From contig JBKJUC010000162.1 of assembly GCA_046590325.1 (NCBI GenBank), positions 21,768 to 85,767 on the forward strand: DNA of 64,000 bases, in the 5' to 3' direction. This document shows positions 6,061-37,744 of the stretch, piece by piece (positions within the stretch are counted from its first letter, which is position 1; each line of letters begins with the position of its first letter). The stretch comes from Burkholderiales bacterium. Lineage in GTDB: Bacteria; Pseudomonadota; Gammaproteobacteria; Burkholderiales; JACQAP01. The notes beneath the pieces were generated by a model. The model did not search any database. It had not been told where the DNA came from and saw nothing but the letters and a program-made list of their open reading frames with translations. A program made the position numbers and the translations under genes.

Positions 6061-7395
6061 TCAGCGCAGGAACAGCAAGGCGACGGCGGCGGTGGCAAGT
6101 ACCAGACTGCCTGCCCAAACCAGCCTGAGGTTCATGCCGCCAGTTCCCGAGGCGCCGGCGCCAGGCCGCATCAGTGCGCCGGGTTGTTGCCAGGTTGTGC
6201 TGTCTGACAGGTTCGGCGGATTGGCGCCGCTGCGTTTCGCGTCGGCTATCGCCTTCAGGCGCGCGACCTTCTGGGTCTCGGAAAACTGATCGAGTTCCTT
6301 CTCGGTGCCGGTTAGAGCGGCGAGCCGCATGGTGGCGCTGAAGTTGTCGAAGGCTTCTGCCAGCCCCAGCGAAGGCTGGGTCGATTCCTGGCCCTGCGGA
6401 GGCCCGTCGGTGCCGCTCTGTGCGGTGTCGGCTCCAGCGTCGGCGGCGGCAAAAATCCGCTCTGCCTTGTCCTCCTGCCGCGTGAGGGGGGCAGCGGGCT
6501 GCACGGACGGCGAGCTTTGTGCGGGCATTGCCAGCAGATCGGCGGGTGGGGCCTGACTTATCGCCGCTGCCAGAATTTCGCGCAGGTCGTGCGCCATGTC
6601 TTTGGCATTCAGATAGCGGCCATCGAGATTCTTCGCCAGGGCCTTGGCCGCAATGAAATTCAACACTTCGGGCAGATCTGGATTGAGCGTCTTGGGCGCA
6701 GGCGGGTTGAAGTTCATGGTCTGGTACATCACGCCGTGGATATTGTCCGCCACGAAAGGCGAGGTGCCGGTCAGCATTTCGTAGAGCACCACTCCCAGCG
6801 AGAATATGTCCGAGCGGCCATCCGCGCGCTTCCCCGAGACCTGTTCCGGCGACATGTACTTGGGCGATCCCAGGATCATGCCGGTCATGGTTTTGACTTC
6901 GTTGTTGCGCATGCGCGCAATGCCGAAGTCGGTGATCTTCACCGAGCCGTCGGCCAGGACCATGATGTTCGCGGGCTTGATATCGCGATGAATGATCTGG
7001 TGGTCGTGGGCATACTGCAGGCCATCCGCCACCTGGGCGGTGATATCGAGCGCCTGCTGCAGGGCTATGGGCGTGCGTGCCTGCATTATGCGGCGCAGTT
7101 CCTGCCCTTCGAGAAACTCCATCGCCATGTAGGCGACGCGCTCGCTGCGTCCGATGTCGTGAATGACCACGATGTTGCGGTGGGAGAGGCCGCCCGCCGC
7201 CTTGGCCTCCTGGTAGAAGCGGGCCTCGTATTCGGCGAGTTCATCTTTCGGCAGGGTCAAATTGACGGTCTTGATCGCGACGATGCGGTCAAGCATCGGG
7301 TCGCGTGCCTTGTAGACCACGCCCATGGCACCCTGGCCCAGTTCGCCGATGATTTCGTAGCGGCCGAGTGTGGCGACTGCAGCATTGGGATTCAT
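6061..7395 (-). CDS. Hanks-type serine/threonine protein kinase, C-terminally tail-anchored
   Basis: Motifs GELGQGAMGVVY, VAIK, HRDIKPANIM, DFG and SPEQ are all present. A low-complexity linker is followed by one terminal hydrophobic helix (LVWAGSLVLATAAVALLFL). ATG at 7395 shares 1 nt with the upstream TGA; an alternative TTG lies at 7398. Confidence 0.88.
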   Translation of the reverse strand: MNPNAAVATLGRYEIIGELGQGAMGVVYKARDPMLDRIVAIKTVNLTLPKDELAEYEARFYQEAKAAGGLSHRNIVVIHDIGRSERVAYMAMEFLEGQELRRIMQARTPIALQQALDITAQVADGLQYAHDHQIIHRDIKPANIMVLADGSVKITDFGIARMRNNEVKTMTGMILGSPKYMSPEQVSGKRADGRSDIFSLGVVLYEMLTGTSPFVADNIHGVMYQTMNFNPPAPKTLNPDLPEVLNFIAAKALAKNLDGRYLNAKDMAHDLREILAAAISQAPPADLLAMPAQSSPSVQPAAPLTRQEDKAERIFAAADAGADTAQSGTDGPPQGQESTQPSLGLAEAFDNFSATMRLAALTGTEKELDQFSETQKVARLKAIADAKRSGANPPNLSDSTTWQQPGALMRPGAGASGTGGMNLRLVWAGSLVLATAAVALLFLR

Positions 7396-7793
7396 CAACT
7401 ATTCTTCTGCCTGGACTTCACGCTTCTGAATACAGGGCCCCAGATCGGGTGCCCGATTTCCGCGGGTCCGAGGTCGAAGTCCGGGTCGAGTTCGAAAGCG
7501 ATGCCGAACTCCTCGCGGCAAGTAAGCGGCTGTCCGGAGACACAGGCAATGAACGCGAGGTACTTGTGCGCCTTGACGCGATCGGGGCGGCGGAGGCCTT
7601 CCTCGAGGGCGAACTGGAGGCGGCGCTGCGCGGTACGGTAATTGCCCTCCTCGTAGTTGCGGACGCCATCCTCCAGATAGCCGGTGCCGGCGGTGCGGCT
7701 TGCGCGAAGGTCCTTGAACGGGCCTTCCGCGCAACCGCCAAGGAATGCGGCGACGAAGGCGAAAATCAGCAGGAGACGGAAAGCGGGCATCAT
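7395..7793 (-). CDS. small lipoprotein with TPR-like helical repeat
   Basis: 132 aa. Signal peptide with lipobox FLGGC. GYLEDGVRNYEEGNYRTAQRRLQFALEEG resembles a TPR helix pair. It lies between the cyclase and kinase genes. Confidence 0.6.
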   Translation of the reverse strand: MMPAFRLLLIFAFVAAFLGGCAEGPFKDLRASRTAGTGYLEDGVRNYEEGNYRTAQRRLQFALEEGLRRPDRVKAHKYLAFIACVSGQPLTCREEFGIAFELDPDFDLGPAEIGHPIWGPVFRSVKSRQKNS

Positions 7794-7801
7794 CTGTAGC
7801 T

Positions 7802-9049
7802 TCAGTTGAACTTGTGTTTGATGCGGACTCTCTGGTCCGCCTTGACTTCCACCACCTGCGAAAACACGGGGAAGTTGGCATTGCGGATTTCTATGGTGCG
7901 TTTGCCGGGGGCGACTTCGAGTTCATTGACGGGCGGGCTGACGCCGACCCGGTTGCCGTCCACGAACACCTCGCCCCAGGGGGCGACGGCCAGCGCGATG
8001 ATCGCTATGCCGGCGGACGCTGGCGGCAAAGACTCGCCGGCCGGTTCTTCATGCTTGGAGAAGAACGACAAAGGCCAGCCCTTGGACTCCCTCTTTTCCT
8101 CCGAAACCGGCTCGGCGGTAAGGGTTGGCGGACTTGTACCATCGCCCGCCTGCGCGGGAGTCGGCTTGGATGAGGAATGTTTCTTGTCCCGGCGGGGGAG
8201 GCCGATGACGGCTGCCGCCGATTTCTCGGAAAGCAGGTTTTTCTGCGGCGCCTCGGCGCCCGGCTTCTCCTCGGCGGCGGGCAGGTCGCTGTGGCCGAGG
8301 AAATTGAGCGTCACTGCCAGGGCGAAGGCGCCAAATGACAGTGTGGCCGTTCCGTATGCGATGGTCCGATTGTTCAGCCACGATTCGACACCGCGCAGCC
8401 AGTGGCCGGTGCCGGTTGCAATGCCCGCGGCCGCGGCCTGGCGGCGGCTTTCATGGGAGGACACCTCGGCGCGCTCGGCGGGGGAGCGCACGGTGCCGCC
8501 TCGGTTCTGGGTATAGCCGACACTGTAAATCTCGTGTTCCCGCACATGCTTGTCGGTACGCGAGCCCTCGTAATTGAAGAGCTTCGCGTAGCCTCCCGAG
8601 ATGTGCGAGACCACCTCGAAATAAGATCGCGAAACCAGCACCTGCCCCGGTTTGGCGAAACCCATCACGCGCTGGGCGACATTGATGCCATCACCGATGA
8701 TGTTGGGCTGGCCGTTCAGGTCGCGCACCAGACGGACCGGTCCGAGATTGATGCCGATGCGCGCCGGCAGTTTCGGTGTTTCGCCGGGCCGGGGCGCGAA
8801 GGCTTCGCGAAGGCTCATCGCAACGAACAGCGCGTCCTCGGGATCGCCCAGAAAATTGATCGCTACGCCGTCTCCGGTATCGAGAATAATGCGGTCGTTG
8901 GCCGCGATGTCGCGAATGGCTTCCGCGATCAGCGAATTGAACTGGTCCTTGAGCTGGATCTGTTCGGAAACCGGCTTGCGCGAGTATTCGGTGATATCCA
9001 GGAACAGCACGCTGCAGATAAACGTGCGGTTGGCGCGCTCAGGCATCAT
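7802..9049 (-). CDS. class III nucleotidyl (adenylate/guanylate-type) cyclase with TM helix and C-terminal PEGA-like domain
   Basis: The N-terminal cyclase homology domain carries metal Asp motifs FLDITEYS and DTGDG plus NVAQR. One TM helix (IAYGTATLSFGAFALAVTLNFLG). C-terminal APWGEVFVDGNRVGVSPP...APGKRTIEIRN is PEGA-like. Confidence 0.8.
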   Translation of the reverse strand: MMPERANRTFICSVLFLDITEYSRKPVSEQIQLKDQFNSLIAEAIRDIAANDRIILDTGDGVAINFLGDPEDALFVAMSLREAFAPRPGETPKLPARIGINLGPVRLVRDLNGQPNIIGDGINVAQRVMGFAKPGQVLVSRSYFEVVSHISGGYAKLFNYEGSRTDKHVREHEIYSVGYTQNRGGTVRSPAERAEVSSHESRRQAAAAGIATGTGHWLRGVESWLNNRTIAYGTATLSFGAFALAVTLNFLGHSDLPAAEEKPGAEAPQKNLLSEKSAAAVIGLPRRDKKHSSSKPTPAQAGDGTSPPTLTAEPVSEEKRESKGWPLSFFSKHEEPAGESLPPASAGIAIIALAVAPWGEVFVDGNRVGVSPPVNELEVAPGKRTIEIRNANFPVFSQVVEVKADQRVRIKHKFN

Positions 9050-9335
9050 GGAGCATCACCTGTGGCTTCACAGTCAAAGTTCTTCCTTGGCGTGCCGGGT
9101 TCCGGGGACGGTAATCTTAACACCAATCGCTTGCCCTTCCGCAAGCCTTATTCGTTAAAAATCCTACTTGCGTCAAGCGTTTTGCGAATATTCCTTCAGA
9201 CCTTTCGAGGTTCGTTCCAAGCCTCATAACGCGGCTTCCGGGCGGCCTTCCTTTATCATTGGACCCCTTTGATTGAGCCCAACGGCTGGCGCCGCCGATC
9301 CCCGTTCCGCAGTCCACCCCCAGTCTGGAGCAGCC

Positions 9336-19508: not shown

Positions 19509-21683
19509 ATGGCATTTTTTGATTTCAAAGCGGGAATGACTGCGTTTGCGAAAGTCATTCAGTGGTTCGTAATGAGCAAACGCATGCTGCTGATCGTTTC
19601 GCCATTCCTGGCGATTGTCGCGGTACTCGTGTGGCTTGCCATTGTCAGCATGGACATCCTGGCTGCAGGTCGCGCATATGTCGAAGGCGAGAGCCTGTGG
19701 TCCAAGAACCAGAAGGAAGCGGTATTCCACCTGGTGCGATTCGCGGCGACTGGCTCCGAATCGGATTTCCTCAGCTATCGCAAAGCGATCATGGTGCCGA
19801 TGGGTTTCCGCAACGCTCGCCTTGAGCTTGAAAAGCCCTATCCAAATGACTCCACCGTGCAGGCCGGATTCATCCAAGGCGGAACCCACCCGGATGACAT
19901 TGCGGGCGTTATCAGCCTGTACGAGCGCTTTCATCGTGTGAGCTACATGAAGAACGTGCTCGATATCTGGAAAACCGGCGATGAGTTCATGGAGAGGCTT
20001 GCCGTGGCAGCCGAAGATCTCCATGCGCTTCAGGTTTCCGGTGGCGTGGACCTCCCTGCGCGCGATAAGGTCTTGCACCGCATTTTCCAGATCAACGAAG
20101 AACTCAGGCCGTGGCAGAACCGATTTTCAAACACTTTGGGTGAGGCCACGCGCTGGATCCGGTCCATGCTGTTGCTCGTGATCCTGACGGTCGCGGGAAT
20201 TCTGATTCCATTCGGTATTTTTCTTACCCAGCGCATGGTCAGTCAAGTCGATCGCGCGGAACGCGAGCTCAAAGAGCTCAAGCTCGGGCAAGAATACTCG
20301 GTGAAGCTTGCCTACCACGCCAGCCACGACCCTCTCACCAATCTGGTTAACCGCCTTGAATTCGAAAAGCGCCTCGCGCTGGCTTTACACACCGCAGTCA
20401 GTCAGGATCGCCAGCATATCGTCATGTACCTGGATCTCGATCAGTTCAAAATCGTCAACGATACCAGCGGGCACGCGGCCGGTGATCAATTGTTGCGGCA
20501 GGTGGGGGCATTGCTAAAAGAACAAGTGCGGGAAGGAGATTCTCTTGCCCGTCTGGGCGGAGACGAATTCGGCGTATTGCTTGAAAACTGTCCGATGCAG
20601 GAAGCAATTGGCATTGCGGACAAGCTGCGCCAGTGCATAGCGGACTTTCGCTTTGTCAGCGAAGGCAAAGCGTTCAGCATCGGCGCTAGCATTGGCGTGG
20701 TACAGGTCGCGGATGGGATGCTCAACCTTACCGACATACTCAGCGCAGCAGATGCCGCCTGCTACACGGCGAAGGAGAAGGGGCGCAATCGTGTTCAAAT
20801 CTATCGTCCGCACGACAGTGAAGTCTCCATGCGCCGGGGCGAACTGGAATGGGTGCCGCGTCTGCAACGAGCGCTCCAGCAAGGACGCTTCGTGCTTTAC
20901 TCTCAACAGATCCTGTCCATCGAGGAGCACTCTCCTCAGGCGAGCCATCACGAACTGCTCGTGCGCATGGTTGACGAGTATGGCAAGGTCGTTCCCCCGA
21001 TGGCGTTCATCCCTGCCGCCGAACGCTATAGCATCATGCCGATGATAGACCAGTGGGTTGTTCAAAACGCGTTCGCTGCGATCAGCTCCCTTGGCCCGGA
21101 TTGCGGAACCTATGCAATCAATATTTCGGGCACATCAATCGGTGATGAACGCTTCCTTGAATTTGTTCGGGAACAGTTCCGAAATTATCACATGCCCCCG
21201 CGGAGCGTCTGTTTTGAAATTACGGAGACTGCCGCGATTGCGAACTTTGACAAGGCGGCGCGATTCTTTGGGGAAATGAAGTCGCTTGGCTGTCTGTTCT
21301 CGCTTGACGATTTCGGGGCCGGAATGTCCTCTTTTGGATATCTCAAGCACTTACCCGTGGATTTCATCAAGATCGACGGCAGTTTCGTCAAAGACGTCGC
21401 GCATGATCCGGTTGCAGTCGCGATGGTGCGGGCCATCAACGATGTGGGACATGTGATGGGCAAGAAAACTATCGGCGAGTTTGTGGACGGAGAGATCGTG
21501 CTCCGTACATTGCGCGAAATTGGAGTGAACTTCGCACAGGGAAACTGGATATCTCCCCCTAAACCGTTCCCGGCAAAGCCGCCAGTTGCAACGCTTCCAG
21601 TAGTACGTACCGGGACAGAAATATCTCTTCTGCCACAGGTGCGGATTGCCTCCCGTGAAGCAATTCTCAATTCCACAACATGA
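19509..21683 (+). CDS. bifunctional diguanylate cyclase/phosphodiesterase (GGDEF-EAL) with N-terminal two-TM periplasmic sensor domain
   Basis: GGDEF motif RLGGDEFGVLL with an upstream RxxD (REGD) I-site. The EAL domain has FEITETAAI, DDFGAGMSSFGYL and KIDGSFV. Two TM helices flank about 170 aa of unassigned sequence. An alternative start is ATG 19572. Confidence 0.88.
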   Translation: MAFFDFKAGMTAFAKVIQWFVMSKRMLLIVSPFLAIVAVLVWLAIVSMDILAAGRAYVEGESLWSKNQKEAVFHLVRFAATGSESDFLSYRKAIMVPMGFRNARLELEKPYPNDSTVQAGFIQGGTHPDDIAGVISLYERFHRVSYMKNVLDIWKTGDEFMERLAVAAEDLHALQVSGGVDLPARDKVLHRIFQINEELRPWQNRFSNTLGEATRWIRSMLLLVILTVAGILIPFGIFLTQRMVSQVDRAERELKELKLGQEYSVKLAYHASHDPLTNLVNRLEFEKRLALALHTAVSQDRQHIVMYLDLDQFKIVNDTSGHAAGDQLLRQVGALLKEQVREGDSLARLGGDEFGVLLENCPMQEAIGIADKLRQCIADFRFVSEGKAFSIGASIGVVQVADGMLNLTDILSAADAACYTAKEKGRNRVQIYRPHDSEVSMRRGELEWVPRLQRALQQGRFVLYSQQILSIEEHSPQASHHELLVRMVDEYGKVVPPMAFIPAAERYSIMPMIDQWVVQNAFAAISSLGPDCGTYAINISGTSIGDERFLEFVREQFRNYHMPPRSVCFEITETAAIANFDKAARFFGEMKSLGCLFSLDDFGAGMSSFGYLKHLPVDFIKIDGSFVKDVAHDPVAVAMVRAINDVGHVMGKKTIGEFVDGEIVLRTLREIGVNFAQGNWISPPKPFPAKPPVATLPVVRTGTEISLLPQVRIASREAILNSTT

Positions 21684-33968: not shown

Positions 33969-34715
33969 TCAACACTCAATCAGGTTTCCGGTTACGCCGC
34001 GCGAATCCTGCCCCATCAGGTAGAGATAGGCAGGCATCAGGCTCGCAGGCTGGCGCTGGGATGCGGCCACTTCACCCGGATGCGTTTTCGCGCGCGAAGG
34101 CGCTGCCACGGGCCCAGGAACGATGGCGTTCACCCGCAGATTGGGCGCATCCGACCACTCCGCCGCCTGAATTTTCATGAGCGCTTCCAGTCCGGCCTTA
34201 GACACGCCGTAGGCCCCCCAGAAAGCGGCGGGGGTATGGCCGTGCGTCTCCGAAGTGAAAATGACCGAAGCGTCGGCTGACGCGCGGAGCAGGCGGGTGC
34301 ACGCTTGGTTCAGTGCTGCCGGCGCTATCAGATTGACATGCAGCGTGCTCGTCCATTCGCCGATGGACAGGTGATCGAGCGCGGAGAGCTTCTCAAGATG
34401 GGCTGCATTGTGAAGGATGCCATCCAGCCGGCCGATGCGGGATTCGATCGCATAGGAGAGGGCGTCGTAGTCCCGTACCGTGGCGCTGAGCAGGTCCAGC
34501 GGAATGGCCGCAGGCTGGGCATGGCCGCTCGATTCGATTTCGTCGTACACCGATTCGAGCGCGGCTTGGTCGCGCCCGTGCAGAACCACCGTGGCGCCAT
34601 GCCTGGCGAATGTCAGCGCTGCAATGCGCCCGATCCCGCGCGAGGCACCGGTCACCAGTATCACGCGATCGCGCAGCAAGTCCGGCGGCGCCGGGTAGGT
34701 CCGTGGATCAGTCAT
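33969..34715 (-). CDS. yciK: SDR family oxidoreductase, YciK-like
   Basis: 248 aa. LLRDRVILVTGASRGIGR, LDGILHNA, YGVSK and LMPAYLYLMGQDSRG parallel E. coli YciK. The start overlaps the hpnE stop by 8 nt. Confidence 0.78.
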   Translation of the reverse strand: MTDPRTYPAPPDLLRDRVILVTGASRGIGRIAALTFARHGATVVLHGRDQAALESVYDEIESSGHAQPAAIPLDLLSATVRDYDALSYAIESRIGRLDGILHNAAHLEKLSALDHLSIGEWTSTLHVNLIAPAALNQACTRLLRASADASVIFTSETHGHTPAAFWGAYGVSKAGLEALMKIQAAEWSDAPNLRVNAIVPGPVAAPSRAKTHPGEVAASQRQPASLMPAYLYLMGQDSRGVTGNLIEC

Positions 34716-36084
34716 TTTTCATTGCCAGATGCGCCGCCCGCACGCCGCTGCGCACGGCGGCTTCGAGGGTCGCGGGATAGTTGGAGGCCGTGTAGTCGCC
34801 GGCAAGAAAAAGCCCGGGGACGAGCGTCGCGTTGTCCGGACGCGTCAGTCCGGGAGTGCAGGCAAAGGTCGCGCGTTTCTCGGCGATGACGCGGTGCCAT
34901 AGGGGTGGCTGCAATCCCGGGATCACGGCACGCAGTTCTCCATGCACCTTCAGCGCCAGTTCGTTCTGGGGCAAGTCCCGATGTGCGCCGGCAGCGGAAA
35001 TCACCACGCCGATCAAACCATCTTGCCCGCAGAGCCGGCCGCGGTCGAACAGCCATTGCGAGTAAATCGCATCGAGCCCACCCATTCTGAAGGGCAGGCG
35101 GGTGCCTCTCGGGTACTGCAGGTATACCGAGTAGATCGGCTGATAGGAGAACGCCTCGATCATGACTCGTATCCGGTCCAGCCGGGCTTGCGTGGCGATC
35201 AGCGCGCCGAGCCGATGGGGTGAAACCGCCAGGATCACCCGATCAAAGTGCCCGCCGTCGGGACGGAGTTCAAACCCCTTTTCGGTGGGCTGCACGCCTT
35301 CGATTGTCGAGCTTAGCCTGACATCGCCGTTCTTCCTTCCGAGATAACGGGCGGCGCGTTCGGGAAACAGCGCAGAGAAATCCACAGCAGGCAGCAGCAG
35401 GTCGCTGTCTGAGCGCTGTCCGTCGAGGCTGTCGCGCAGGACGTTGAGGAATACCTGGGCGGAGGCTTCTTCGGGCCGGGTGTTGAGCGCGGATACGCAA
35501 AGCGGATTCCAGAGCAACCGCGAAACCCGCTCCGGCTGCCCGAAAGAAGCCAGCAGAGCCGATACGTTGGTGTCGGCGTGCAGTCGGAAGCGCTTCCTGC
35601 GCATCGTCAGCATGAAGCGGGCGGCGCGCAACTTTTCGCCCAGGTTCAAACCGCGCGCGGCGAGCAGCGCCACTCCCAGATGCAGCGGCGCAGGAAGTCC
35701 CGGCACCCGCAACATGAATTCGGGATACATCGACAGTTCCAACGGCATGCGGATCAGGCCGCGGCTTTCGCCGCCTTCACGGGTCAGGTCGATGAGCCGT
35801 AACGTCTCCGAGTAGGCGCCGATCAGGATGTGCAGGCCGTTGTCCAGCGCGATACCGTCGACCTCGACGCGCCGCGCACGGCCGCCCAGAATTTTGCCCG
35901 CTTCGAACACCGTCACTGCTGCGCCGTGATTCGCCAGTTCCACGGCGGCTGCCATGCCGGCGTAGCCGCCGCCAACAATGGCAACGCGCGGGTGCGCGTT
36001 GACGGGTAAAGTGGGACGGGTGACCGTTGACAAGCCCGATCTCGTCACGATCGGCGCTTTTGTTGTTGTCTCGTCACTTGCCAC
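34708..36084 (-). CDS. hpnE: hydroxysqualene dehydroxylase HpnE (FAD-dependent desaturase)
   Basis: 458 aa. FAD fold VAIVGGGYAGMAAAVELA, amine-oxidase-like C-terminus LFLAGDYT. Positioned after hpnC-hpnD. Confidence 0.8.
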   Translation of the reverse strand: MASDETTTKAPIVTRSGLSTVTRPTLPVNAHPRVAIVGGGYAGMAAAVELANHGAAVTVFEAGKILGGRARRVEVDGIALDNGLHILIGAYSETLRLIDLTREGGESRGLIRMPLELSMYPEFMLRVPGLPAPLHLGVALLAARGLNLGEKLRAARFMLTMRRKRFRLHADTNVSALLASFGQPERVSRLLWNPLCVSALNTRPEEASAQVFLNVLRDSLDGQRSDSDLLLPAVDFSALFPERAARYLGRKNGDVRLSSTIEGVQPTEKGFELRPDGGHFDRVILAVSPHRLGALIATQARLDRIRVMIEAFSYQPIYSVYLQYPRGTRLPFRMGGLDAIYSQWLFDRGRLCGQDGLIGVVISAAGAHRDLPQNELALKVHGELRAVIPGLQPPLWHRVIAEKRATFACTPGLTRPDNATLVPGLFLAGDYTASNYPATLEAAVRSGVRAAHLAMKND

Positions 36085-36095
36085 CTGTCACCGGC

Positions 36096-36935
36096 TTACG
36101 CAGTGAGCCACGTCCGCCATGCGATCCAGAGCTTGCGCAACGGGGTAAGCGACGTCCTCTGATTGAGAACCCGATTTCCGTCCGTCCGGATTTCCTGGAG
36201 CAACGTCCGATAGATGGCGGCCATGACCAGGCCGGGGCGTTGTGATTTGCGGTCAGTTGCGGGCAGGGCGGCAAAGGCGCGATTGTAGAAATCCTGGGCG
36301 CGGTCGATCTGGAACTCGATCAACTTACGGAACGCGTCGGTCTCCCGCAACTGCGCCACGTCGGCTGCGGAAAGACCGAATCGCGACAGTTCATCGAGCG
36401 GCAGGTAGACGCGATTGCGGCGCGCATCCTCGCCCACGTCGCGGATGATGTTGGTGAGCTGGAATGCCGTGCCCAGATTTTCCGCGTAAGTCAGGGTGGA
36501 CGGATCGCGGTAGCCGAAGATCGCGGCGGCCATCAGGCCGACGGCACCCGCTACGCGATAGCAGTAGGACTGCAGCGTCGGAAAATCGGGATAACGGTTG
36601 TAGCTCAGGTCCATTTCCATCCCGTCGATGATTTCCTCGAAATGACGGTGCGGCAGATCGAACCGTCTGACGACCGGGATCAACGCCTGGGCTACGGGAT
36701 GCTGGGCGGCCCCGGTGCCTTCGAAAACGCCGGCGATTTCCTTGCGCCACCACGCCAGCTTGGTGCGGGCCACGTCGGCGTCGCTGCATTCGTCGACGAC
36801 GTCGTCAACCTCACGGCAGAAAGCGTAGAGGGCGATGATCGCCCGTCGGCGCTCCGCCGGCAGGAACAAGAAGCTGTAGTAGAAGCTCGATCCGCTTTTG
36901 GCGGCTCTGTCCTGGCAATACTGATCGGGTGTCAT
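36096..36935 (-). CDS. hpnD: presqualene diphosphate synthase HpnD
   Basis: Start MTPDQYCQDRAAKSGSSFYYSFLFLP. Asp-rich motifs FCREVDDVVD and NIIRDVGEDA. ATGA overlap with the hpnC stop. Confidence 0.82.
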   Translation of the reverse strand: MTPDQYCQDRAAKSGSSFYYSFLFLPAERRRAIIALYAFCREVDDVVDECSDADVARTKLAWWRKEIAGVFEGTGAAQHPVAQALIPVVRRFDLPHRHFEEIIDGMEMDLSYNRYPDFPTLQSYCYRVAGAVGLMAAAIFGYRDPSTLTYAENLGTAFQLTNIIRDVGEDARRNRVYLPLDELSRFGLSAADVAQLRETDAFRKLIEFQIDRAQDFYNRAFAALPATDRKSQRPGLVMAAIYRTLLQEIRTDGNRVLNQRTSLTPLRKLWIAWRTWLTA

Positions 36936-37744
36936 TGGCGGGCAAGCGAGCGGCAGAACATCCAGATCCAGTCCACGGGGCCGAGTACCGGCCTGCTGCG
37001 GAAAACATCGCCCTCGCAGTGACTCAGCTTTTGCAGGATTCTGGAGCCGCCCGCGACGATCATGCGCAACTCCAGTCCAATGCGTCCCGGCAGGCGGTGG
37101 CCCAGCGGAGCGCCCGCCTGCATCATCGCCCGCGTTCTGTCGATCTGGAACAGCATCAGTGCCCGCCACGCTTCATTGGCTTCCCGGTTTGCGATTTGGG
37201 ACTCGGAAACGCCGTATTCTGCCATCTCGTCCTGCGGCAGATAGATGCGATTGTTGCGGAAGTCGATGTCCACATCCTGCCAGAAATTGATCAGTTGCAG
37301 GCTCGAACAGATGTCGTCCGCGCAGGCGAGGTTGCGAGATCCGGTCGCCCGGTACAGGTGCAGTAGCAGCCTGCCGACCGGGTTGGCGGAGCGCCGGCAA
37401 TAGTCCATCACCTCGCCGAAGTCCGCATATCTTGTCTTCACCACGTCCTGTGAGAAGGCCGAAAGCAGGTCACGAAACAGTCCGATCGGCAGGTCGTGCA
37501 ATTTGATGACAGGCGCCAGGTTCGCGAAAAGCGTCCGTTCGGGTGCGACGCCACGCTCGATACGGTCAAGTTCATCGCTGAATTCCTTCAGCCGCGCAAG
37601 CCTCTCGCTGGCCGGCACGTCACCCTCATCGGCGAAGTCATCCGCCTGGCGCGCAAATGCGTAGATCAATTCGACCGGACGGCGCAGTTCCCGGGGCAGC
37701 AGAACCGAAGCCACGGGAAAGTTCTCATAGTGATCGACCGCCAT
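36932..37744 (-). CDS. hpnC: squalene synthase HpnC
   Basis: 270 aa. MAVDHYENFPVASVLLP, FARQADDFADEG and INFWQDVDIDF are trans-isoprenyl diphosphate synthase head-to-head family motifs. Confidence 0.82.
   Translation of the reverse strand: MAVDHYENFPVASVLLPRELRRPVELIYAFARQADDFADEGDVPASERLARLKEFSDELDRIERGVAPERTLFANLAPVIKLHDLPIGLFRDLLSAFSQDVVKTRYADFGEVMDYCRRSANPVGRLLLHLYRATGSRNLACADDICSSLQLINFWQDVDIDFRNNRIYLPQDEMAEYGVSESQIANREANEAWRALMLFQIDRTRAMMQAGAPLGHRLPGRIGLELRMIVAGGSRILQKLSHCEGDVFRSRPVLGPVDWIWMFCRSLARQ

Follow-up and report, generated by a model that had tools for sequence, protein, structure and literature searches.

We analysed a window of 64,000 nucleotides from a Burkholderiales bacterium (assembly GCA_046590325.1, contig JBKJUC010000162.1, positions 21,768 to 85,767) and concentrated on three adjacent genes that it carries on the minus strand. 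They encode a protein composed of a cyclase-homology domain (CHD), a transmembrane helix and a PEGA domain (gene 1), a TssQ-family lipoprotein with a miniature TPR domain (gene 2), and a Hanks-type Ser/Thr kinase (gene 3; Table 1). A preliminary description of this DNA had pointed out how closely the genes are packed, and both junctions lie exactly where it had put them. The spacer between genes 1 and 2 is 8 nt long (7794-7801; TTCAAC TGA agctacag ATGATG), and the TGA of gene 2 overlaps the ATG of gene 3 by the single base 7395 (AATAGT TGATG AAT). An alternative start for gene 3 is a TTG at 7398. All three genes show a coding-type composition, with a G+C content of 0.78-0.79 at third and 0.45-0.47 at second codon positions. 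Many long open reading frames on the opposite strand lack the codon-position pattern of this genome's real genes. Our neighbour annotation with Pfam agrees with the flanks named earlier: radA is convergent with the kinase gene, at a stop-to-stop distance of 12 nt, and an AMP-binding acyl-CoA synthetase gene is divergent from gene 1.

Table 1. Features of the three-gene locus, numbered from the first base of the window (pLDDT, predicted local distance difference test)
Feature	Position	Strand	Description
Gene 1, CHD-transmembrane-PEGA protein	7802..9049	minus	415 aa, ATG start (open reading frame list)
Cyclase-homology domain (CHD), cytoplasmic	8519..9025	minus	aa 9-177; AlphaFold pLDDT >90
Single transmembrane helix	8297..8371	minus	aa 227-251 (AlphaFold); hydrophobic segment TIAYGTATLSFGAFALAVTLNFLG in the translation
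Periplasmic Pro/Ala/Glu/Lys-rich low-complexity tether	8015..8296	minus	aa 252-345; pLDDT ~50, no secondary structure
PEGA beta-sandwich	7811..8005	minus	aa 349-413; seven strands, pLDDT ~95 (AlphaFold)
Gene 2, TssQ-family mini-TPR lipoprotein	7395..7793	minus	132 aa, ATG start
Gene 3, Hanks-type Ser/Thr kinase	6061..7395	minus	444 aa counted from ATG
C-terminal transmembrane tail anchor of the kinase	6067..6123	minus	aa 425-443, one residue after; hydropathy scan
Candidate operon promoter blocks	9114..9176	minus	TTGAC ~9176-9172; TGnTAAGAT (extended -10-like) ending ~9114

The layout originally proposed for the gene 1 product, a catalytic domain followed by one transmembrane helix and a PEGA-like sandwich, was recovered by three lines of analysis: the PEGA score, the fold match of the CHD and the topology of the AlphaFold model. 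Against a Pfam cutoff of 20.8 bits, the PEGA model (PF08308) scored 22.0 bits with the whole protein and 26.5 bits with the isolated domain, and it matched 27 of 28 orthologous domains. The motif PWGE...G..SPP...PG...N in this domain is invariant. The tether of about 95 residues that leads to this domain differs in length and sequence among orthologues, and its columns could not be aligned in the family alignment A2. A search of the PDB with the PEGA domain returned weak matches only. The sole solved chain with some similarity was chain D of 9k1u (89 aa, 'Serine/threonine protein kinase'; E 0.04-0.14, not significant), which may be the PEGA-like domain of a kinase.

When a profile built from 39 members of the gene 1 family was searched against the PDB, it matched solved class III cyclases with E-values of 1e-9 to 1e-10, including 3mr7 (E 8.5e-10) in an alignment that spanned most of the CHD. 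The CHD model superposed on the catalytic domains of Rv1900c, Ma1120, CyaB and 3mr7 with template-modelling scores of 0.73-0.83 (Foldseek, E ~1e-10). In the 3mr7 alignment, D18 and D60 fall on the metal-binding positions, and N123 and R127 on the transition-state positions. We counted the conservation of these residues in 74 loci and in 150 representatives of the subfamily obtained by clustering at 50% identity; of the latter, 139 keep D18, 136 keep D60, 136 keep N123 and 144 keep R127 (91-96%). On the evidence of profiles and models, then, the domain is a divergent class III cyclase-homology domain. Because it matches the cyclase fold and because the metal-binding and transition-state residues are conserved, it looks catalytically competent. 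The family is large, with 7406 homologues of gene 1 at E<=1e-3 among 90% clusters and 706 representatives of 50% clusters at E<=1e-30.

The gene 2 product is the 132-residue lipoprotein with an LGGC lipobox and a TPR-like helix pair that had been read from the sequence initially. Its signal peptide leads into the lipobox FLGG/C21 with Ala at position +2, and the lipobox Cys is invariant in 44 aligned family members. As the lipobox has Ala at +2, the mature protein is probably anchored in the outer membrane. AlphaFold modelled it, at a pLDDT of about 95, as two TPR-like hairpins, a short helix and a capping helix, preceded by a tether of some 15 residues. The TPR-like domain comprises residues 36-131, and alignments reveal invariant C84 and C92 as well as the motifs HKxLAF and AExGHPxWGP. 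Although Pfam registered no more than a faint TPR similarity in this protein, the NCBIfam model NF038027, named "TssQ family T6SS-associated lipoprotein" after the T6SS (type VI secretion system), matched it with 94.1 bits (cutoff 65, E 5.9e-27) over model positions 8-99 of 100. Foldseek with the lipoprotein model found generic TPR proteins only, and a sequence search of the PDB gave weak matches to PilF and TPR designs.

Two namesakes were considered and rejected. TssQ of the Bacteroides T6SSiii has one transmembrane helix, at its N-terminus, and an elongated helical periplasmic domain, belongs to the TssNQOPR complex and is not a lipoprotein (PMC10781749); a transmembrane helical protein of this kind and a 132-residue betaproteobacterial TPR lipoprotein share their name by coincidence. 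The tssQ of Proteus owes its name to alphabetical labelling and does not belong to the NF038027 family. Among the relatives of the gene 2 product, P0043 (223 aa, L006:3284-3955) is a lipoprotein in which the whole TssQ-like module is duplicated in tandem: it holds two copies of HKYLAF...AExGHPxWGP, and its partner PEGA protein keeps a single PEGA domain.

Gene 3 encodes a kinase with all the catalytic hallmarks listed in the preliminary description. Pfam Pkinase scored 187.4 bits, and the G-loop GQGAMG, VAIK, HRDIKPAN, DFG and SPE can be read directly in the translation; NCBIfam gave sub-threshold kinase matches only. The catalytic domain (residues 13 to about 280) is followed by a low-complexity linker, a conserved juxtamembrane segment and the C-terminal tail anchor, which is the sole membrane element; as noted before, there is no periplasmic domain. 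This arrangement is general, since a hydropathy scan found a transmembrane segment at the very end of all 61 complete kinases encoded 3' of the lipoprotein gene, with 0-6 residues beyond it. PpkA, the membrane kinase of the T6SS threonine phosphorylation pathway, carries its own periplasmic domain, and the lack of any such sensor in the kinase described here sets it apart from that pathway.

The three genes probably form one operon, given the 8-nt and -1-nt junctions, median gaps of about 10 nt in relatives, and the presence of conserved upstream blocks before gene 1 only. These blocks, TTGAC and TGnTAAGAT, are invariant in an alignment of six orthologous upstream regions and make a candidate promoter of the operon; a strict consensus scan of the region yielded no sigma-70 promoter match. 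An Rfam search of the region found no match. The leader of gene 1 also contains a hairpin, GCTTGC-N6-GCAAGC at 9129-9146, which was flagged as terminator-like on both strands and is retained in the closest relatives only.

We then asked how the trio is distributed. A contig scan of one genome per species with the lipoprotein alignment detected relatives in 473 genomes, from which the best 80 loci, all in metagenome-assembled genomes (MAGs), were kept and classified by tblastn. In 59 of the 80 the full trio of CHD-PEGA gene, lipoprotein gene and kinase gene was present in the same order. Six loci had the CHD-PEGA and lipoprotein genes followed by an unrelated gene and no kinase, and in four the lipoprotein gene was preceded by a fused kinase-transmembrane-PEGA gene without a cyclase domain. 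A further seven were cut by contig ends but consistent, and four were uninformative. The median gap was about 10 nt at both junctions (79 and 65 loci). Close homologues from uncultured Burkholderiales and Betaproteobacteria carry the trio between radA-alr and an acyl-CoA synthetase/electron transfer flavoprotein cluster. Overall, radA adjoins 39 of the 80 loci, including two of the fused type, and the others occupy different chromosomal contexts. At the locus L006, for example, a lipoprotein with 47% identity lies beside metG, outside the synteny, and is still flanked by the CHD-PEGA and kinase genes; its cyclase narrowly passes the Guanylate_cyc model (22.4 bits). Thus the trio, whose failure to be co-conserved would have spoken against a functional unit in the preliminary description, travels as a unit, with about half of the loci outside the radA context.

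Such a distribution bears on two further explanations. That three functionally unrelated genes came to be neighbours by chance is scarcely credible when the same order and near-zero spacing recur in 59 of 80 species genomes and in several chromosomal contexts, and when fusions join PEGA to the kinase and the TssQ domain to the cyclase. It is also very improbable, if slightly less so, that the genes constitute an anti-phage defence or accessory module with a Pycsar-like cyclase or a kinase like Stk2 or PD-T4-6. The kinase does score high on the PADLOC models PD-T4-6 and mad6, but these are generic Hanks-kinase profiles, and the cyclase and lipoprotein match nothing in PADLOC. Moreover, the locus is syntenic and of housekeeping character rather than an island, each of the three proteins is anchored in the envelope, and an effector gene is lacking.

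What varies among the loci is the cytoplasmic domain. The PEGA gene and the lipoprotein gene are adjacent in essentially every locus surveyed, and the cytoplasmic part of the PEGA protein is a cyclase domain in 65 loci and a kinase in four, as it is in a T6SS version from Burkholderia described below. That one pair persists through the three locus classes (59, 6 and 4), and the PEGA protein and lipoprotein thus make up the invariant core, to which different cytoplasmic outputs can be attached. This pattern fits the earlier suggestion that a shared periplasmic surface serves different outputs, as far as the adjacent pair and its alternation between cyclase and kinase are concerned; that the trio itself delivers two outputs, phosphorylation and a cyclic nucleotide, would be a further step.

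The four fused loci (L061, L069, L070 and L083) come from Sulfuricella, Sulfuriferula and other MAGs. All have a divergent PP2C gene directly upstream and no T6SS genes, and L061 and L069 adjoin radA-alr. No upstream PP2C gene was found by tblastn in any of the full-trio or kinase-less CHD-PEGA loci. In a neighbour-joining tree of PEGA and lipoprotein sequences, which lost its outgroup and hence lacks a proper root, the kinase-less loci group together and the fused loci fall into two groups. Because the fused form is common to the T6SS version and to the four free-standing loci, parsimony weakly suggests that it is the older one and that a cyclase domain was substituted for the kinase of the PEGA protein.

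A wider view of the cyclase subfamily was obtained from the 150 representatives. A PWGE-type PEGA domain like that of the window protein is found at the C-terminus of 81 of them, and none has a kinase domain. Other periplasmic C-termini are Cys-flanked canonical PEGA domains, short Cys-containing tails and another beta-rich domain. In P0356 (421 aa, encoded outside the window), the PEGA domain is replaced by a TssQ-like TPR domain that follows straight after the transmembrane helix and shares 34% identity with the window lipoprotein (E 6e-13). In this domain GHPxWGP survives only in the degenerate form ANSLYGP, and there is no counterpart of the second conserved Cys. This fusion links the cyclase domain to the lipoprotein's domain independently of gene order. 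In P0293, P0338, P0352, P0359 and P0369, the fusion partner of the CHD is a periplasmic C-terminal domain of another kind, with a terminal motif like HPFIYQGRGWKEHDL. The subfamily thus seems, from its domain combinations, to be a general carrier of swappable periplasmic sensor domains.

The preliminary description had recognised no described system in this combination of genes. Described relatives do exist: the lipoprotein belongs to NF038027, and the PEGA domain is homologous to that of a Burkholderia T6SS kinase. The T6SS clusters concerned, which carry a kinase, TagF and Fha, are those of Burkholderia (B. arboris, B. stagnalis and B. thailandensis) and Ralstonia. By tblastn of plasmids and chromids we located lipoprotein genes on Burkholderia secondary chromosomes whose products are 36-38% identical to that of the window, called the open reading frames there and identified them with NCBIfam and Pfam. 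The Burkholderia lipoprotein scores 127 bits for NF038027, and its gene is divergent, beside tssJ-tssK-tssL-tssM, beyond which follow a Ser/Thr kinase gene and then tssA-tssB-tssC-hcp-tssE. This kinase is of the kinase-transmembrane-PEGA type, and its C-terminal PEGA domain shares 34% identity with that of the window (E 8e-12). In B. thailandensis and a Ralstonia MAG, fha lies 3' of the lipoprotein gene, in Ralstonia together with a PP2C gene, and the TagF and kinase genes lie across tssJKLM. Its gene neighbourhoods thus make the TssQ lipoprotein family part of the threonine-phosphorylation block of the T6SS in Burkholderia and Ralstonia. There as here, the set includes a Hanks kinase, and in both cases an outer-membrane lipoprotein would face the periplasmic domain of an inner-membrane protein. 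In the T6SS version, however, PEGA is on the kinase, the genes sit among tssJKLM, tagF, fha and PP2C, and there is no cyclase domain, whereas in the window the CHD protein bears PEGA, the kinase has a tail anchor and no periplasmic part, and genes for a T6SS, Fha, PP2C or TagF are absent from the surroundings.

A more distant locus, L091 (GCA_009612935.1, WBZM01000196.1), has a comparable T6SS block in which the kinase carries DUF4384 instead of PEGA. Between this kinase and a 175-aa TssQ-like lipoprotein lies a 713-aa protein without a Pfam match, making this a third flavour of T6SS-linked sensor. The T6SS-linked version with a kinase-PEGA protein and a lipoprotein is apparently uncharacterised. 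A review of accessory T6SS factors from 2026 does not mention PEGA or TPR, and we found no entry in it for a TssQ-type lipoprotein (PMC13584744). Our search of the full-text literature found no description of a CHD-PEGA/lipoprotein/kinase module.

These relatives raise the question of whether the trio could regulate a T6SS in trans, as a threonine-phosphorylation sensor whose secretion genes, Fha and PppA are encoded elsewhere and to which the cyclase adds an input or output. The preliminary description had itself allowed for a match to a T6SS pathway of this type with the remaining genes elsewhere, and the family match, at least, was found, both in NF038027 and in the Burkholderia and Ralstonia blocks. 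In addition, Burkholderia, Ralstonia and one further genome place the family between tssJ and fha or PP2C, with kinase and TagF in the block, the Burkholderia T6SS kinase has a homologous PEGA domain, and the four fused loci retain their divergent PP2C gene. In contrast, tblastn with TssA, B, C, E, J, K, L, M, Hcp, Fha, PP2C and TagF (two queries each for Fha and PP2C) gave no match in the 64-kb window, T6SS core genes were absent within 10 kb of every one of the 80 loci, and Fha, PP2C and TagF were absent from the full-trio and kinase-less CHD-PEGA loci. Nor were Fha or PP2C genes seen among the Pfam-annotated neighbours of near-identical loci, or cNMP-binding (cyclic-nucleotide-binding), FHA, PP2C or T6SS families among the 20 larger open reading frames of the window that were scanned with Pfam, which cover part of it; the earlier statement that none of these lies adjacent is thereby upheld. 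Each of the four T6SS-linked loci that we examined has its lipoprotein gene within the cluster and not at a distance, the T6SS versions examined lack a cyclase domain, and identity between the window lipoprotein and the Burkholderia ones is no higher than 36-38%. Finally, in about half of the genomes the trio occupies the housekeeping radA-alr locus. Regulation of a distant T6SS is thus an unlikely role for the trio, though the least unlikely of the alternatives we considered.

The name of the family may in fact say little about these proteins. NCBI labels the trio lipoproteins P0017, P0022, P0069, P0072, P0096 and P0099 'TssQ family T6SS-associated lipoprotein', and for P0099 (L004, L005) there is no T6SS gene within 10 kb. 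From such gene neighbourhoods, the term 'T6SS-associated' appears to have been over-propagated from the Burkholderia clade and is probably a misnomer here. In public databases it has spread to many genomes that have no T6SS gene near the lipoprotein gene.

Other systems resemble the module in logic or in parts. The Rcs system uses an outer-membrane lipoprotein, RcsF, to report the state of the envelope to the periplasmic domain of the inner-membrane protein IgaA. This is an analogy only, with no relationship in sequence or fold, and Rcs feeds a phosphorelay rather than a cyclase and a Hanks kinase. In the TagQRST-PpkA-Fha1-PppA pathway of the P. aeruginosa H1-T6SS, a disturbance of the envelope is sensed by the outer-membrane lipoprotein TagQ and relayed by periplasmic partners to a Hanks kinase in the membrane (PMC13584744). 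The likeness drawn here is one of logic, in the route from outer-membrane lipoprotein to membrane kinase; no equivalents of TagR, TagS, TagT, Fha1 or PppA were found near the trio, and the output here includes a cyclase domain. The NCBIfam family TIGR03903, 'TOMM system kinase/cyclase fusion protein', likewise combines a Hanks kinase and a class III cyclase in one signalling unit, and the window kinase domain matches its kinase part below threshold; in the window, however, the two are separate polypeptides, and there is no TOMM context. With membrane class III cyclases that bear extracytoplasmic sensors (closest to Rv1900c, Ma1120, CyaB and 3mr7), gene 1 has in common the fold, the metal Asp pair, the Asn and Arg, and an architecture of cytoplasmic CHD, transmembrane segment and periplasmic domain. 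It differs from them in its very divergent sequence, its Leu/Asn specificity pair, its N-terminal CHD, its single transmembrane helix and long disordered tether, and its dedicated lipoprotein and kinase partners.

Taken together, the data lead us to a reading to which we would assign a probability of about one half, namely that the operon encodes an envelope-spanning signalling module in which a T6SS-type sensor has been rewired to a cyclase. The TssQ-family lipoprotein would be held in the outer membrane by its short tether, and the PEGA domain would reach it in the periplasm from the inner membrane on the long flexible tether of gene 1. A change in the contact between the two would alter the dimerisation or activity of the CHD, and hence its production of a cyclic nucleotide. 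Such a change could be triggered by damage to the envelope, by a different spacing, or by a ligand or partner that occupies the TPR groove. The tail-anchored, sensor-less kinase might work in the same complex, either controlled by the PEGA protein or phosphorylating it or downstream targets. Such a module could have originated from a T6SS sensor made of a kinase-transmembrane-PEGA protein and a TssQ lipoprotein, with the cyclase taking the place of the kinase on the PEGA protein and the kinase moving downstream. The link between PEGA and lipoprotein is supported by the adjacency of their genes, by the same pair of domains in the Burkholderia T6SS cluster and by the P0356 fusion. A more specific version, in which the contact of TPR lipoprotein and PEGA forms a T6SS-independent sensor from outer to inner membrane that jointly controls a non-canonical Leu/Asn cyclase and the tail-anchored kinase, is at present a tentative proposal.

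Several observations weigh against this reading. The rule that Ala at +2 directs a lipoprotein to the outer membrane is that of E. coli and may not hold in this lineage, the meeting of PEGA and lipoprotein in the periplasm is itself something we infer, and the lipoprotein does pass the model of a T6SS-associated family. Among the 80 loci, the kinase is missing from six species and the cyclase from four, so that either output can occur without the other and the two do not have to act in concert. Among Pfam-annotated neighbours and the 20 scanned open reading frames there was no cNMP-binding effector. As to the cyclase itself, the Pfam searches that found PEGA in the gene 1 product did not likewise find Guanylate_cyc (PF00211), which scored 16.4 bits against a cutoff of 21.9, and the identification made in the preliminary description is supported instead by the profile and fold searches. 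The positions at which adenylate cyclases have their substrate-specifying Lys and Asp are occupied by L56 and N116, and throughout the family position 56 is L, I or V and position 116 mostly N, sometimes S. Judged by the 3mr7 alignment and the 150 representatives, the CHD has neither the canonical Lys/Asp pair for ATP nor a Glu/Cys-type pair for GTP. It could take an unusual substrate or be non-catalytic, and its product can therefore not be narrowed from the sequence to cAMP or cGMP; a cyclase with a Leu/Asn pair possibly makes some other nucleotide.

The same features could be explained if the CHD were a non-catalytic or non-cyclase scaffold for dimerisation or nucleotide binding, the kinase the sole output and the PEGA protein its detached sensor subunit. 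The sub-threshold Guanylate_cyc score, the family-wide replacement of Lys and Asp by residues such as Leu56 and Asn116 and the lack of a cNMP-binding protein nearby would all suit such a scaffold, as would the fact that in the fused relatives the kinase sits exactly where the cyclase domain would be. Without catalysis, though, it is hard to explain why the two metal-binding Asp residues, the transition-state Asn and the transition-state Arg should each persist in more than 90% of the 150 diverse representatives. Rv1900c likewise has no canonical Lys and yet is an active adenylate cyclase. Furthermore, six species keep the CHD-PEGA and lipoprotein genes without the kinase, and the cyclase protein therefore has a function of its own. 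We consider the scaffold improbable, marginally more so than the regulation of a distant T6SS.

The module is made of known domain types in a widespread but uncharacterised combination, and its features of note are the non-canonical cyclase site and the detached, sensor-less kinase. With lipoprotein relatives in 473 species genomes and 706 clusters of the cyclase protein at 50% identity, it is among the commoner uncharacterised signalling cassettes in environmental Burkholderiales-type bacteria. Should the more specific, T6SS-independent version be correct, the module would constitute a signalling system that had so far escaped recognition although it is common in uncultured Betaproteobacteria of soil and groundwater, and it would show by what means the envelope is sensed by the T6SS kinase of the Burkholderia type, itself uncharacterised. 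If an envelope-spanning module is indeed what the operon encodes, the contact of PEGA and TPR lipoprotein would be a portable sensor head that has been plugged into a kinase (in T6SS clusters and the four free-standing loci), a cyclase, or a cyclase with a detached kinase, and the loci would amount to a natural experiment in the rewiring of envelope sensing between phosphorylation and second-messenger outputs. The comparison also opens hypotheses about what triggers the kinase of the Burkholderia and Ralstonia T6SS clusters and about the product of the Leu/Asn cyclase.

Elsewhere in the window, the 20 larger open reading frames scanned with Pfam include beta-oxidation genes, a GGDEF-EAL protein, squalene/phytoene-synthase-type genes, tig, lon, a ppiD-type gene and ABC transporters, and by their domains all 20 are housekeeping genes. 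The GGDEF-EAL protein (724 aa, 19509-21683, plus strand), of a type involved in cyclic di-GMP turnover, is encoded amid a cluster for fatty-acid beta-oxidation, and its N-terminal part of about 270 residues has no domain assignment. At 33969-37169 on the minus strand there are consecutive genes for an SQS_PSY squalene/phytoene synthase, a flavin amine-oxidase-type enzyme and a short-chain dehydrogenase, which, on their Pfam domains, are reminiscent of hopanoid/squalene biosynthesis of the hpnCDE type.

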